From a virus (taxonomy: Duplodnaviria; Heunggongvirae; Uroviricota; Caudoviricetes), in IMG/VR virus record IMGVR_UViG_2563366928_000012, positions 1 through 39,483 of that record: DNA of 39,483 bases, one strand, 5' to 3'. The notes below the pieces were generated by a model, which saw only the letters and a list, made by a program, of their open reading frames with translations, did not search any database and was not told the origin of the DNA. The position numbers and the translations under genes are program-made. This document shows, one piece after another, positions 3,950 to 35,614 of the stretch (position 1 is its first letter; each line of letters opens with the position of its first letter).

Positions 3950-4011
3950 GTTGGTTTTTCTCCACGGATTTACTGACAACCGAAGCCCTGACTGTTCCCG
4001 CAGTTGGGGCT

Positions 4012-4215
4012 TCAACTTTCTGATCTATCAGTTATATCTTTCCCTTCATATACTTCACCTATATTGCTAATGCTGGCAGAACATCCAAGATGCTTGTATC
4101 TTATGATGTCCAACACGCAGTCACTACACAGCATCCGACCTGTTTCTTTAGAGTAAATGTATGTTTGATCAGCGTCTGATTCGCTAATGCCGCAGAAACA
4201 ACATTCTTTACTCAT
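4012..4215 (-). CDS. Small Cys-rich (zinc-ribbon-like) protein inserted between arc and ant
   Basis: 67 aa with CCFCG, CSDC and a further Cys. Start ATG overlaps the arc stop (ATGA), suggesting translational coupling. Confidence 0.45.
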
Positions 4216-22145: not shown

Positions 22146-22618
22146 ACCTCAACCTCTCTGACCGTTCCGCCAGCCTCTTTGAATTTTGCAATCAGGCTGT
22201 CAGCCTTATGCTCGAACTGACCATAACCAGCCCCCGGCAGTGAAGCCCAGATATTGCTGCAACGGTCGATAGCCTGACGAATATCACCGCGATCAATCAT
22301 CGGTAAAGCGCCACGCTCTTTAATCTGCTGTAGTGCAACAGCGTCCTGGCTTTTCGGAGAGAAGTCTTTCAGGCCAAGCTGCTTACGATAGGCATCCCAC
22401 CAACGGGAAAGAAGCTGGTAACGTCCGGCTGCTGTTGATTTGAGTCTGGGGTTTAGCGTGACAAGTTTGCGAGGGTGATCGGAGTAATCAGTGAATAGCT
22501 CTCCTCCTACAATGACGTCATAACCATGATTTCTGGTTTTCTGCCGTCCGTTATCAGTTCCCTCTGACCACGCCAGCATATCAAGGAACGCCTTACGTTG
22601 ATTATTGATTTCCACCAT
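22142..22618 (-). CDS. R: Endolysin (lambda R-type lytic transglycosylase)
   Basis: 158 aa starting [35 protein letters not shown] as in lambda R. Confidence 0.85.
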
Positions 22619-22925
22619 CTTCTACTCCGGCTTTTTTAGCAGCGAAGCGTTTGATAAGCGAACCAATCGAGTCAGTACCGATGTAGCCGATGAACACGCT
22701 CGTTATATAAGCGAGATTGCTACTTAGTCCGGCGAAGTCGAGAAGGTCACGAATGAACCAGGCGATAATGGCGCACATCGTTGCGTCGATTACTGTTTTT
22801 GTAAACGCACCGCCATTATATCTGCCGCGAAGGTACGCCATTGCAAACGCAAGGATTGCCCCGATGCCTTGTTCCTTTGCCGCGAGAATGGCGGCTAACA
22901 GGTCATGTTTTTCTGGCATCTTCAT
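22602..22925 (-). CDS. S: Holin/antiholin (lambda S)
   Basis: 107 aa starting [39 protein letters not shown], near-identical to recalled lambda S with dual-start MKM. Confidence 0.9.
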
Positions 22926-23041
22926 GTCTTACCCCCAATAAGGGGATTTGCTCTATTTAATTAGGAATAAGGTCGATTACTGATAGAACAAATCCAGGCT
23001 ACTGTGTTTAGTAATCAGATTTGTTCGTGACCGATATGCAC

Positions 23042-23080
23042 GGGCAAAACGGCAGGAGGTTGTTAGCGCAACCTCTTGCC
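23042..23080 (-). terminator. Candidate late-leader terminator (tR'-like)
   Basis: GGCAAGAGGTTG-CGCTAA-CAACCTCCTGCC then GTTTTGCCC on the minus strand, between tRNAs and S. Confidence 0.4.
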
Positions 23081-23167
23081 ACCCGCTTTCACGAAGGTCA
23101 TGTGTAGAAGGCCGCAGCGTAACTATCACTGATGAATTCAGGATAGCCAGTGGCTACGGCTCAGTTA

Positions 23168-23243
23168 TGGTGCTGGTTAACGGACTTGAACCGCTACCCA
23201 TTCGCTTACAAGGCGACTGCTCTACCATTGGAGCTAAACCAGC
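23168..23243 (-). tRNA. tRNA, anticodon UGU (Thr) by hand fold
   Basis: 76 nt cloverleaf: acceptor GCTGGTT/AACCAGC, D-stem GCTC/GAGC, anticodon loop CTTGTAA, T-loop TTCAAGT, encoded 3' ACCA. Confidence 0.6.
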
Positions 23244-23248
23244 ATGTT

Positions 23249-23323
23249 TGGCGGGACAGCGTGGACTCGAACCACGATAAGAAGGTTAACAGCCTTCCGT
23301 AATGACCTTTATACGACTGACCC
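23249..23323 (-). tRNA. tRNA-like, anticodon GUU (Asn) by hand fold, imperfect stems
   Basis: 75 nt: anticodon stem GAAGG/CCTTC, loop CTGTTAA, T-arm CGTGG-TTCGAGT-CCACG, 3' GCCA; one acceptor-stem and one D-stem mismatch. Confidence 0.45.
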
Positions 23324-23386
23324 AAATAAAAAAAGCCACCGTTGCAACTTAAGAGTCACTAACGGCAGCTTACCTTCTAATTATGG

Positions 23387-23905
23387 CTAAATAGATAATT
23401 GCATGTCAAGGCTTTTAACAGCAACATGCTTAACTTTCTCAACACGTTTACGCATTTTGAAAGCATTTTGCATTGGCTGGTACAAAACAAATAACGACGC
23501 TTTCAGGATGTCGTCAATTTCGTTTCTACAGGTTGCCATTGAAGGTTTTCTCCATCCCTCGCCACCACGTCCACACATTTTGCGTGGCTTTGCAGTCGCG
23601 TGATAGTAGGATGCAATTGCTCGCTTAGATGAACCATGAGCGTAGTAGCTGAGGAGGATGCCAAAGGCTTTCTTGTCAATGTACATGACGGAATCGACGA
23701 CCTGAGAAATCAACATTCCATCATCATCATTACACATTGGCCTTGTCATAACTCTTCCCGGCTCTACGCTCTCCATGAACTTCGCTATTACGCTGCTCAT
23801 GCGCTTTTCCAGGCGGCCTGAATAAACCCATGCACCCCACAGTTCAAGCCAGCCATTCAGCCAATCATGCTGTTCTTTGGTGAGGTTTAGTTCTCTTATG
23901 CCCAC
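23387..23905 (-). CDS. Q: Late-gene antiterminator Q-like (non-lambda Q type)
   Basis: 172 aa at the Q position between ninI and the late leader; Cys/His-containing; sequence differs from lambda Q, so assignment is positional. Confidence 0.55.
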
Positions 23906-33528: not shown

Positions 33529-33589
33529 ATGCATACCAATAACGCTTCACTCGAGGCGTTTTTCGTTATGTATAAATAAGGAGCACACC

Positions 33590-33730
33590 ATGCAATATGC
33601 CATTGCAGGGTGGCCTGTTGCTGGCTGCCCTTCCGAATCTTTACTTGAACGAATCACCCGTAAATTACGTGACGGATGGAAACGCCTTATCGACATACTT
33701 AATCAGCCAGGAGTCCCCAAAAATGGATAA
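33590..33730 (+). CDS. Small hypothetical protein
   Basis: 46 aa (MQYAIAGWPVAGCPSESLL...), TAAGGAG RBS. Confidence 0.4.
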   Translation: MQYAIAGWPVAGCPSESLLERITRKLRDGWKRLIDILNQPGVPKNG

Positions 33731-33836
33731 AACACTTATGGCTATCCAGACTAAATTCACTATCGCCGCTTTTATTGGCGATGAAAAGATGTTTCGTGAG
33801 GCCGTCGAAGCCTACAGAAAATGGAGGTCAAAATGA
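33723..33836 (+). CDS. Small hypothetical protein
   Basis: 37 aa (MDKTLMAIQTKF...), AGGAG RBS; overlaps neighbours as in tightly packed early-left operons. Confidence 0.3.
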   Translation: MDKTLMAIQTKFTIAAFIGDEKMFREAVEAYRKWRSK

Positions 33837-34021
33837 TTCCGGTAGAACTGGCGAAAACTCCAGAGTTAAGTCGATTAAAAAGAGAATATCATATTGCTGA
33901 GGCTCGTTACTGGCGTAAAGCGGGAGATAAATCAAAGAAACAACTTTGCTTATGGCAGGCACAAAGAGAGCGCATGAATGAGCGTGAGTTTCTTTCCTCC
34001 CCATCCGAATTACCATTCTGA
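33833..34021 (+). CDS. Small hypothetical protein
   Basis: 62 aa (MIPVELAKTPELSRLKREYH...), GGAGG RBS. Confidence 0.35.
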   Translation: MIPVELAKTPELSRLKREYHIAEARYWRKAGDKSKKQLCLWQAQRERMNEREFLSSPSELPF

Positions 34022-34029
34022 GGCAAATT

Positions 34030-34710
34030 ATGGGAACTGCGACATTAATACTCGGTGAATCTGGCACCGGAAAATCAACCAGCATGAGAAATATCAATCC
34101 AGAGGAAGCAATACTTATAAAACCAATAGGCAAGCCGCTTCCATTTAAATCAAAAGACTGGCTGGCATGGGATGCCAGAGCAAAAAAAGGAACCGTAGTT
34201 ACCACTGACAAATGGGACGTAATAGTTGCCGTAATTAAGCGTGCTCACGAATACGGGAAAAGAATCGTTATTGTTGATGACTTCCAGTATGTGATGAGCA
34301 ATGAGTTTATGCGCCGCTCAGAAGAAAAATCGTTTGATAAATTTACTGAGATAGGCCGCCACGCATGGGAGGTGATTAAGGCTGCACAGGATGCACCTGA
34401 TGACCTGAGAGTCTATTTTCTTGCACACACCGAAGAAACCCCTATGGGGCGTGTGAAAATGAAGACTATCGGCAAAATGCTGGACGAGAAAATCACTGTC
34501 GAAGGCATGTTTACTATAGTTCTTCGCACCCTTACCCGCGATGACCAGTTCTTTTTCACCACGAAAAACAACGGTGCAGACACTGTAAAATCCCCAATGG
34601 GAATGTTTGATTCTAATGAGATTGATAACGATCTCTCTTTCGTCGATGCCACTGTTTGTGATTACTACGGCATCAATAATGTTCATCAAATTAAGGAAAA
34701 CGCCGCATGA
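34030..34710 (+). CDS. P-loop ATPase, Sak4-like (RecA-fold single-strand annealing/recombination protein)
   Basis: 226 aa; Walker A GESGTGKST at residues 9-17, Walker B-like IVIVDD; position equals the lambda exo/bet recombination slot. Confidence 0.5.
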   Translation: MGTATLILGESGTGKSTSMRNINPEEAILIKPIGKPLPFKSKDWLAWDARAKKGTVVTTDKWDVIVAVIKRAHEYGKRIVIVDDFQYVMSNEFMRRSEEKSFDKFTEIGRHAWEVIKAAQDAPDDLRVYFLAHTEETPMGRVKMKTIGKMLDEKITVEGMFTIVLRTLTRDDQFFFTTKNNGADTVKSPMGMFDSNEIDNDLSFVDATVCDYYGINNVHQIKENAA

Positions 34711-35294
34711 GCAACGTGATTTTTACTTATAACGAAGAAGCAGCACTGACCGCAGGGCAAGGTGGTTTTATTAACGAAACTGGTGCTCATATCATTACCA
34801 TTACTGAAGCAGAACTAAAGCAATCAGAAAAAGGAGCCAAATTTATTGAGTTTTCTGGCGAATCTGACGACGGACGTAAAATCCAATATCTTAGCGTCTG
34901 TGTTCAGAAAAATGACGGAACGGAAAACAAATTTGGCGCAAATGTCGTTCACGCCATGATGGGGTGTGCCGGGATTGGACAATTAACGCAACATATGGTT
35001 TCCGCCAGTAAATTTGTTGCTCCTGAGTTTCATGGAAAGAAAATCGGGTTAGTGCTCCAGAAAGTATTAACCACAAACAAAAAGACTGGCGCAGACAGCT
35101 ACCAGATGGAAATACGCATCCCGTTTATTGCACAAACAGGTCAAACCCTTAAAGAAAAGGCGGAAGGCAAGCAACCAGAAACTATCGCCAACATGGTTGC
35201 CAGCCTCAAAGATAAAGACAATCGCTCTAAAAACGTAAGCCATAATCATGCAGATGATTATGGTTACAGCCAGAACGATTACCCTCCTTTCTGA
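34707..35294 (+). CDS. Sak4-associated protein, possible ssDNA-binding protein with acidic C-terminal tail
   Basis: 195 aa ending ADDYGYSQNDYPPF, reminiscent of SSB C-terminal tips; overlaps ATPase stop. Confidence 0.35.
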   Translation: MSNVIFTYNEEAALTAGQGGFINETGAHIITITEAELKQSEKGAKFIEFSGESDDGRKIQYLSVCVQKNDGTENKFGANVVHAMMGCAGIGQLTQHMVSASKFVAPEFHGKKIGLVLQKVLTTNKKTGADSYQMEIRIPFIAQTGQTLKEKAEGKQPETIANMVASLKDKDNRSKNVSHNHADDYGYSQNDYPPF

Positions 35295-35317
35295 TTATTG
35301 AAAATAAGGCTCCCATT

Positions 35318-35614
35318 ATGCCAGCGCCTCTGTATGGTGCGGATGACCCGCGCAATTGCTCCGGTAGCTCCAAGGCGGAGGTGCTGGAAAATATCAAAAA
35401 CAATTTCGACGCGTTTCTTGCTCTGACACCAGAAACAAAAGCAGAACGGATGTACCGACGCGATATACAACTCGCGCTAAAACAGGAGAAGGACCGAACA
35501 AACGAAACAGCAATGAGACCGTTGCGAAAAGCGACAATAGACAAATTCCCTGAATATATCGACCCGCGCCTGCGTAATTACCGCTCACGCTATGGCGCTA
35601 TCAGTAATGACTGA
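35318..35614 (+). CDS. Hypothetical protein
   Basis: 98 aa ORF in the early-left operon. Confidence 0.35.

Follow-up and report, generated by a model that had tools for sequence, protein, structure and literature searches.

INTRODUCTION

The OLD nuclease of phage P2 has host tRNA-ThrU as its primary target and cuts it at the paired CNG motifs of positions 28–30 and 40–42, while tRNA-Asn(GUU) is cleaved more slowly (PMC12445682). Govande et al. (2025) determined that phage tRNA-Thr(UGU)s rescue through replacement of the host tRNA and not through inhibition of OLD; tRNA-Thr21 of phage 21 protects cells from the toxicity of P2 OLD plus Gam and exhibits reduced cleavage in vitro, and OLD resistance requires an altered motif plus a shortened stem, tRNA-Thr21 having both a shorter anticodon stem and the C28U/G42A changes (PMC12445682). 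The tRNA-Thr(UGU) of phage HK446 likewise restores the plating of the OLD-sensitive phages HK97, HK542 and Bas34, whereas E. coli tRNA-Thr(UGU) does not (bioRxiv 10.64898/2026.07.10.737580). Here we describe the locus that encodes an identical tRNA-Thr(UGU), next to a tRNA-Asn(GUU), in a tailed phage (Caudoviricetes), namely the 39,483-nt IMG/VR record IMGVR_UViG_2563366928_000012, the whole of which (positions 1 to 39,483) is referred to below as the window.

A related attack on host tRNAs was described for the PARIS system. Its nuclease AriB cleaves the tRNA-Lys(UUU) of E. coli, its tRNA-Thr(UGU) and, to a lesser extent, its tRNA-Asn(GUU) between positions 40 and 41, beside U36-A-A-U39, and these tRNAs are also depleted; cleavage is abolished by U39A and impaired by U16C, and the Lys, Thr and Asn variants of phage T5 jointly neutralise PARIS, T5 tRNA-Asn being needed for full rescue (Belukhina et al. 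2025, PMC12409363). At the late-leader site, tRNAs are present in some P22-like phages, those of Sf6 being Asn and Thr (PMC8022706). The cassette examined here is already known, its annotation dating back to the Sf6 genome record.

Our analysis makes it probable that the two genes constitute a portable Asn–Thr cassette placed behind the terminator tR', in which tRNA-Thr provides a resistant replacement as well as codon supply, and tRNA-Asn likely a replacement too. The role of tRNA-Thr has been published, while the neighbouring Asn gene was overlooked by the recent papers.

RESULTS

Two genuine tRNA genes in tandem between Q and the holin gene

Exactly two tRNA genes were called by ARAGORN in the whole window, both on the minus strand: a 75-nt tRNA-Asn at 23249..23323 (anticodon GTT, i.e. 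GUU in the RNA; G73 and an encoded CCA) and a 76-nt tRNA-Thr at 23168..23243 (anticodon TGT, i.e. UGU; A73 and an encoded CCA), with a 5-nt minus-strand spacer, AACAU, at 23244..23248, which reads AAUAU in the commonest prophage allele. Both were matched over the full length of the Rfam model RF00005, with 55.3 bits (E 2e-9) for tRNA-Asn and 61.5 bits (E 4e-11) for tRNA-Thr against a gathering score of 29 bits, and the minimum-free-energy (MFE) structure is a cloverleaf for each, the z-score of the tRNA-Asn MFE being −1.7. A preliminary description of this region had placed two tandem tRNAs with anticodons UGU and GUU, 5 nt apart, between Q and the holin gene, and ARAGORN and Rfam found the same two genes, ARAGORN with the same anticodons and spacing. 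Both genes are genuine, and chance tRNA-like folds were ruled out by the scores together with the covariation reported below.

Two mismatches interrupt the stems of tRNA-Asn: the acceptor stem contains U4.U69 and the D stem U13.U22 (as marked on the NC line of the Rfam alignment), so the imperfections that had been seen there by hand folding are real. Its anticodon stem is a full 5 bp (GAAGG/CCUUC, with C39 and no CNG motif), and the 7-nt anticodon loop with U33 and A37, the D-loop GG, the T-loop UUCGA, G73 and the CCA end are intact. The tRNA-Thr, described earlier as the convincing one of the two, has irregularities of its own while being a true tRNA: the basal pair of its anticodon stem is a mismatch, G27.A43, which leaves a 4-bp stem, and its D loop, CAAUGGUA, is unusual. 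Its pairs include G1-C72, C2-G71, U28-A42 and C31-G39.

The identity elements of AsnRS are the anticodon G34-U35-U36 and the discriminator G73, and those of ThrRS are G1-C72, C2-G71, G35 and U36. They are present in tRNA-Asn (CU-GUU-AA and ...GUCCC-G-CCA) and in tRNA-Thr (GCUGGUU...AACCAGC-A-CCA with anticodon UGU), by which both are predicted substrates of the respective E. coli synthetases.

The D arm of tRNA-Thr contains UAGCUCCAAUGGUAGAGC, with a C where A14 is expected. The same arm was found among IMG/VR loci L133–L194 in 29 Phe, 8 Ala, 4 Asn, 3 Thr-CGU and 1 Trp tRNAs, many of the contigs being metagenomic and 100–460 kb long. C14 as a defect was rejected, given that UAGCUCCAAUGGUAGAGC occurs in tRNAs of other specificities on unrelated phage contigs; its recurrence there points to a recurrent phage tRNA design and not to damage, and suggests a shared phage tRNA scaffold.

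Stem mismatches are conserved and the stems covary

By using an 18-mer of the Asn D arm, 120 IMG/VR loci were collected, from which 18 Asn and 21 Thr alleles were usable; the commonest Asn allele occurred in 79 of 111 loci. The Asn D arm is fixed by this search pattern. Among the Asn alleles, 6 of the 21 pairs (19 cells) had changed on both sides with pairing kept, such as 5:68, 6:67, 7:66, 28:42 and 29:41; among the Thr alleles, 8 of the 21 pairs (22 cells) had done so, such as 3:70, 5:68, 6:67 and 49:65. The covariation score was reached by none of 500 shuffles for Asn and none of 500 for Thr, and slid-register controls yielded 0–2 pairs changed on both sides for Asn and Thr alike.

Across the 18 Asn alleles 90.5% of cells were paired, with the anticodon stem paired at 100%; the only systematic non-pairs were 4:69 and 13:22, themselves conserved. 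U4.U69 was unpaired in 16 of the 18 and U13.U22 in all 18, the latter within the D arm fixed by the search pattern, and the same U13.U22 arrangement is present in E. coli glyT. In tRNA-Thr, 27.43 was unpaired in 20 of the 21 alleles, while 1:72 and 2:71 were invariant. In this alignment, U4.U69 and U13.U22 are conserved features and not marks of decay. The earlier suggestion that the GUU tRNA is decaying does not hold against the six compensated pairs and the conserved mismatches, and a pseudogene was rejected by the covariation together with the exact conservation of tRNA-Asn among phages.

Both tRNAs differ from their host counterparts at positions reported for nuclease recognition

The Thr gene is a nuclease-resistant replacement tRNA, experimentally characterised in 2025–2026 in an identical sequence, for which the decoding of ACA was published as well (PMC12445682). 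Comparison with host thrU displayed 66% identity, with an anticodon stem of GUCGC/GCGAA (27.43 unpaired) in the window versus ACUGA/UCAGU in the host. Positions 39–41 are G-C-G versus U-C-A, positions 28–30/40–42 are UCG/CGA versus the CUG/CAG of thrU, and position 16 is A versus U. The window tRNA-Thr therefore corresponds to the description of tRNA-Thr21: its anticodon is that of the host target, its CNG is altered and its anticodon stem is shortened. It would stand in for host tRNA-ThrU, which is encoded by a single gene and reads ACA, and would resist cleavage when OLD-family Toprim tRNases destroy that host tRNA, the primary P2 OLD target and a prime target of PARIS AriB; the resistance would come from the stem shortening by G27.A43 plus the exchange of C28-G42 for U28-A42. 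The preliminary description had also raised the replacement of a nuclease-targeted host tRNA, which conforms to what is published for this Thr(UGU) gene, although it had assigned that role to the GUU tRNA.

For tRNA-Asn the corresponding comparison was made with host asnT, to which it is 59% identical; at blastn sensitivity, no match was found between host tRNA genes and the cassette. Host asnT has U-C-C at 39–41 and a paired CNG (CGG/CCG) at 28–30/40–42, versus C-C-U and AAG/CUU in the window tRNA-Asn. For each gene of the cassette, then, the host counterpart has been reported as a substrate of OLD-family Toprim tRNases, and the phage version does not show the recognition motifs described, although the anticodon stem of tRNA-Asn is a full 5 bp. 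Since AriB and P2 OLD both attack host tRNA-Asn(GUU) and their reported motifs are missing from the phage copy, a replacement role is plausible for the latter as well, and tRNA-Asn can be regarded as a putative nuclease-resistant replacement that would do for host tRNA-Asn, a secondary AriB target and slower P2 OLD substrate, what tRNA-Thr does for ThrU. The chance that two random tRNAs both fall among the three main targets of AriB is about 0.4%, an estimate that takes roughly 40 anticodon species and ignores the bias of phage tRNAs toward A/U-rich codons. Conceivably, the conserved U4.U69 is adaptive too, such as against an enzyme recognising the acceptor stem.

The cassette lies directly behind tR' in the late leader

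The order along the transcript is Q, Asn, Thr and holin, all on the minus strand, which agrees with the Sf6/phage 21-type order and with the earlier remark that lambdoid phages carry tRNAs in this slot. The Q open reading frame (ORF; 23387..23905, minus strand, 172 aa) encodes a late antiterminator of the phage 21 type, whose Sf6 counterpart is gene 59, 'similar to phage 21 Q'. The late promoter pR' (TTGACA-18-CATAAT, 23380..23409, minus strand) has 11 of 12 consensus matches and the position of the annotated Sf6 pR'. It is followed by a short leader with the qut region and tR' (23324..23373, minus strand), in which a stem at 23369..23335 precedes seven U residues at 23334..23328; the tR' hairpin with its U7 gave −20.2 kcal/mol and z −5.4 in a fold of 23373..23324. 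This leader is the counterpart of the 50-nt 'aRNA' of phage 21 (4652–4701 of AJ237660) and of the qut/tR' features of Sf6, and in phage 21 the Asn gene begins at the very next base after the aRNA/tR' end.

A second hairpin, GGCAAGAGGUUG...CAACCUCCUGCC followed by GUUUU, is located at 23046..23080 on the minus strand (stem 23080..23051), with tRNA-Thr 88 nt upstream of it and the holin start 120 nt downstream. With −26.6 kcal/mol including flanks and z −2.9 it is weaker than tR', and it is kept in HK446 with two non-compensatory differences. This is the hairpin that had been described as tR'-like downstream of the tRNAs; it exists, but the true tR' is the one at 23373..23324, upstream of them. 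It might serve as a second terminator that polymerase modified by Q passes, or it might stabilise the tRNA precursor at the 3' end. A simple terminator scan of 22800–23600 called no terminator, neither tR' nor the second hairpin. The first protein gene of the late operon is the holin/antiholin S ORF (22602..22925, minus strand, 107 aa), annotated as holin in HF4s, Sf6 and HK446.

Since the tRNA genes follow tR' with no space left for a separate promoter, this anatomy suggests that their transcription relies on read-through mediated by Q: pR' would fire constitutively and transcription would halt at tR' after about 50 nt, and the tRNAs would presumably be excised from the read-through transcript by the host tRNA-processing enzymes. 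The near-identical tRNA pair of phage BTP1 is transcribed, and its lytic operon begins directly after both tRNA genes (PMC7067206); whether tRNAs in the late mRNA of P22-like phages get excised is not known according to the phage L paper (PMC8022706).

Late genes are enriched in ACA

Codon usage was compared between long non-overlapping ORFs of the window and 41 annotated E. coli coding sequences (CDS). ACA occurred 18.3 times per 1000 codons in the late genes versus 5.4 in the E. coli CDS (3.4-fold) and AAT 21.5 versus 13.8 times (1.6-fold), while AAC was equal to the host (24.0 versus 23.9 per 1000). ACA has the third-largest absolute excess among all codons; AGA (7.6-fold), GGA, TCA and CTT are equally or more enriched and have no matching tRNA in the cassette. 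Given the ACA enrichment, tRNA-Thr would also relieve a codon-supply bottleneck, and a loss of host ThrU would hit the window phage especially hard. Codon supply is thus a real contributor for Thr. Supply alone does not explain why this pair was chosen, why the two genes diverge from those of the host (66% and 59% identity) or why host ThrU fails to rescue.

Identical and variant cassettes in other phages

Both tRNA genes are present as exact strings in phage 21 (AJ237660), HK446 (NC_019714) and Sf6 (AF547987), and tRNA-Asn is exactly identical in ST64T too. The 171-nt Asn–Thr pair is 100% identical to that of phage 21, and the Q–holin interval is 98–99% identical to those of Escherichia phage HF4s, Sf6, BTP1, SPN9CC and many others; the records of several relatives annotate the pair as tRNA-Asn plus tRNA-Thr, with the words 'similar to phage 21' in the Sf6 record. 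At least 80% of the pair is carried by 361 of 5426 complete E. coli genomes (about 7%). Beyond E. coli and Salmonella, the cassette was found in Escherichia sp., E. albertii, Shimwellia, Phytobacter and Klebsiella phages. An 18-mer scan of genome contigs yielded 17 matches, 6 of them the cassette (Escherichia sp., E. albertii, Shimwellia, Phytobacter and two short contigs of gut metagenome-assembled genomes, probably mis-binned) and the rest chance 18-mers outside tRNAs. HK446 has a Q, pR' and tR' of the lambda type yet the same cassette, indicating a mosaic module whose spread is not tied to the type of Q, and the same cassette is shared by phages with different integrases. HK446 is described as encoding a single tRNA, Thr(UGU) (bioRxiv 10.64898/2026.07.10.737580). 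Its record, NC_019714, is without tRNA annotation; the identical tRNA-Asn(GUU) is located 5 nt upstream of tRNA-Thr there (L131, 608–682).

The slot is variable in composition. In Klebsiella phage Mulock (L004, 1501–1820) it is widened to Asn-Phe(GAA)-Thr-Arg(UCU), and the Klebsiella-type expanded slot, sometimes with an added Gly(UCC), was also observed in IMG/VR loci L102, L141 and L074. In about ten related prophages (L108, L018, L041, L088, L090, L099, L107, L120 and L118 among them) the second tRNA, at about 201–276 of the extracted stretch in L108 and its kin, is chimeric. Its first 17 nt are of the phage Thr type, including the CAAU D loop, and the remainder is host thrU in L118; in other chimeras the remainder is thrU with G42U/U43C (plus A49G), by which 27:43 and 28:42 are unpaired and the 3' CNG is broken. 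ARAGORN no longer calls these chimeras. A glyT-like tRNA-Gly(UCC), often with A38G, starts 3 nt past the chimeric tRNA, and Gly(UCC) is a reported OLD target (bioRxiv 10.64898/2026.07.10.737580). To judge from their sequences, the chimeras look like the capture of a host tRNA followed by resistance mutations.

In ST64T (L003, 788–856; the same in L100), and probably in phage L, a tRNA-Asn identical to that of the window is followed by a second gene that scores 42 bits as a tRNA, has a 4-nt loop (CCUUC-CUAA-GAAGG) in place of the anticodon loop and is missed by ARAGORN; it may be a non-decoding tRNA-like RNA. A Leu(UAA) tRNA was reported at the second-tRNA position in phage L (PMC8022706).

Phage-plasmids also carry both Asn and Thr tRNAs. 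In the pair search against E. coli, 752 of 1151 matching places were on plasmids, 86–112 kb in size among the matches listed (e.g. NZ_CP058309.1 and NZ_CP048306.1). These plasmids, probably phage-plasmids of the P1-like and SSU5-like kinds, have diverged Thr(UGU) genes beside Asn, Tyr or Arg tRNAs; of these, Tyr(GUA) is what retron-Eco7 PtuAB targets (PMC12445682).

The window phage is a mosaic P22-like coliphage

The late genes of the window resemble those of CUS-3 and phiv205-1, and similarity to Stx phages was seen in parts of the early region, which conforms to a mosaic P22-like coliphage. Rfam identified a full-length P22-type sar antisense RNA (3950–4017, plus strand, 95.6 bits) and a lambda cIII thermoregulator (33577–33635, plus strand, 88.5 bits), which mark out the immI region and where the early-left operon starts. 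That operon (33597–35614, plus strand) encodes Kil, a small phrog_1723 protein, a Sak4-like single-stranded DNA (ssDNA) annealing ATPase, a single-stranded DNA-binding protein (SSB) and Abc2 (anti-RecBCD), with no Gam and no Erf. Homologues of HK446 Oad2 (gp27), of the OLD trigger Gp33 and of gp36 were searched in the window, and none was found; Abc2 of P22 did not activate P2 OLD (PMC12445682).

DISCUSSION

Replacement of cleaved host tRNAs versus other roles

A pure codon supply for the highly expressed late genes, unrelated to host defences, appears improbable to us as the whole explanation, though several observations speak for it: ACA and AAT are 3.4- and 1.6-fold up in the late genes, ACA is read solely by the single-copy thrU, and late, Q-dependent expression suits the demand for late proteins. 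Supplementation of the tRNA pool was proposed in the phage L paper because 24 of the 25 Asn codons of the capsid gene are AAC (PMC8022706), and a 2026 preprint states that both Sf6 tRNAs read codons with a usage unlike that of the host. Against supply as the sole purpose, AGA (7.6-fold), GGA, TCA and CTT show equal or greater enrichment but have no tRNA in the cassette, AAC use equals that of the host and AAT is merely 1.6-fold up. Both Asn codons are read by one host tRNA species, encoded in K-12 by the four gene copies asnT, asnU, asnV and asnW. Nor is it obvious how translation would gain from the 27.43 mismatch, conserved in 20 of 21 Thr alleles. Overexpressed host ThrU protects little or not at all from OLD while the phage allele does, which indicates that the sequence differences matter.

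The other explanations fare worse. That tRNA-Asn is a decaying pseudogene, or a non-decoding decoy for a nuclease or other tRNA-binding factor, could be read from its two stem mismatches, from an MFE z-score of only −1.7, and from the 4-nt anticodon loop of the second tRNA in the ST64T/L lineage, by which aberrant tRNA-like genes do occur in the slot; it is nevertheless very improbable given six compensated pairs, an anticodon stem fully paired in 18 alleles, exact identity of tRNA-Asn in phages 21, HK446, Sf6 and ST64T, intact loop nucleotides, G73 and CCA, and the presence of U13.U22 in host glyT. The decoy idea of the preliminary description is further countered by both OLD studies, which found replacement of the host tRNA for phage Thr tRNAs and not competitive inhibition of the nuclease. 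Lower still we place the compensation of a host tRNA gene damaged by prophage integration, a possibility raised for HK446 (bioRxiv 10.64898/2026.07.10.737580). Many lambdoid phages do integrate into tRNA genes, and the HK446 attP resembles thrW; however, genes that abut tR' and lack a separate promoter would be expected to stay mostly silent in the repressed lysogen, and attP-type integration normally rebuilds the target tRNA. The anticodon of thrW is CGU, unlike the UGU and GUU of the cassette, and phages with different integrases share the cassette. The least probable explanation is that the tRNA structures are mainly processing punctuation, at which RNase P/E frees or stabilises the late mRNA, with decoding being incidental: the tRNAs are indeed at the extreme 5' end of a polycistronic late transcript of >20 kb, and their excision status is noted as not known by the phage L authors (PMC8022706), but anticodons, identity elements and CCA are conserved, and P22 and lambda have no tRNA at the late-leader position (PMC8022706).

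Several points also weigh against replacement by the Asn–Thr cassette. Codon supply alone could explain Thr, and no experiment on the Asn tRNA of this cassette was found in the literature searched. Missing U39 or CNG is the default for most unrelated or diverged tRNAs, and the resistance determinants are not universal, since the P1 tRNA-Asn has UAAUCA and the P1 tRNA-Thr CUG/CAG with a 5-bp stem; the Asn alleles of Klebsiella phages keep U4.U69 but carry a perfect paired CNG (CAG/CUG). Thr(UGU) alone failed to rescue lambda or recB cells from OLD (bioRxiv 10.64898/2026.07.10.737580). For rescue from the B185 PARIS the Lys variant is necessary (PMC12409363), so that a cassette without tRNA-Lys(UUU) could not defeat it as a pair alone. 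Q-dependent expression may be late relative to nuclease activation. Since no known OLD trigger is encoded in the window, it cannot be claimed that this phage triggers OLD, and the cassette may be kept for other OLD-/PARIS-family enzymes, for codon supply, or through linkage within a widely exchanged module.

A possible collecting point for counter-defence tRNAs

On balance we favour the resistant cassette, with replacement and supply combined in tRNA-Thr. A broader proposal is offered more tentatively, with confidence falling short of even: tRNA-Asn would be a second cleavage-resistant replacement, and the post-tR' slot could be a hot-spot in which the lambdoid phages of Enterobacteriaceae gather tRNAs that counter Toprim tRNases of the OLD/PARIS type. 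The arrays of the slot, namely Asn-Thr, Asn-Thr*-Gly(UCC) (Thr* for the chimeric tRNA) and Asn-Phe-Thr-Arg(UCU), abound in anticodons of known nuclease targets (UGU of Thr, GUU of Asn and UCC of Gly), and some alleles look freshly built, apparently by recombination with host thrU and then G42U/U43C changes that would open the base of the anticodon stem. Small temperate phages, and through their prophages about 7% of complete E. coli genomes, carry such tRNAs, whose main value probably is that translation continues when abortive-infection nucleases cut the host tRNAs. If the slot is such a collecting point, it would be a simple genomic marker to predict which tRNAs are attacked in the host population.

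Comparison with known tRNA-bearing phages

The arrangement of the window recurs in Sf6, which, like BTP1, SPN9CC, vB_SosS_Oslo and others, has the same order of pR', qut, tR', Asn, Thr and holin; its two tRNAs are identical to those of the window and only point changes outside the tRNAs were observed, with 98.4% identity over 551 nt. The tRNA-Thr(UGU) of phage 21 and HK446 is the same 76 nt in the same post-tR' position, with the shortened anticodon stem and U28-A42, but the window phage is another mosaic, with P22-like virion genes, a phage 21-type Q and no Oad2/Gp33. The late slot itself is occupied in Stx phages such as 933W, where ileZ-argN-argO are located downstream of Q/pR' before the cargo and lysis genes; these have rare Ile and Arg anticodons, and codon supply for stx and the late genes is their classic explanation.

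More distant parallels share the anticodons rather than the context. In phage P1, trnA(Asn) and trnT(Thr) have the same order, Asn(GUU) then Thr(UGU), 2 nt apart, but belong to a C1-controlled operon, and P1 tRNA-Asn retains the host-like UAAUCA and P1 tRNA-Thr the paired CNG and full stem. N4 has a cluster of Asn-Ser-Thr-Pro, with Asn before Thr as in the window. The Thr tRNAs of P1 and N4 are 76–83% identical to that of the window, the Asn tRNAs merely 56–59%. Of the three anticodons by which T5 neutralises PARIS, two are shared with the window, and substitutions occur at or beside the AriB cleavage site, position 39 not being U in the tRNAs of either phage; their sequences are unrelated (61% and 57% identity), and T5 has an essential Lys variant and about 24 tRNAs under early promoters of its own, whereas the window phage has two tRNAs that should depend on Q.

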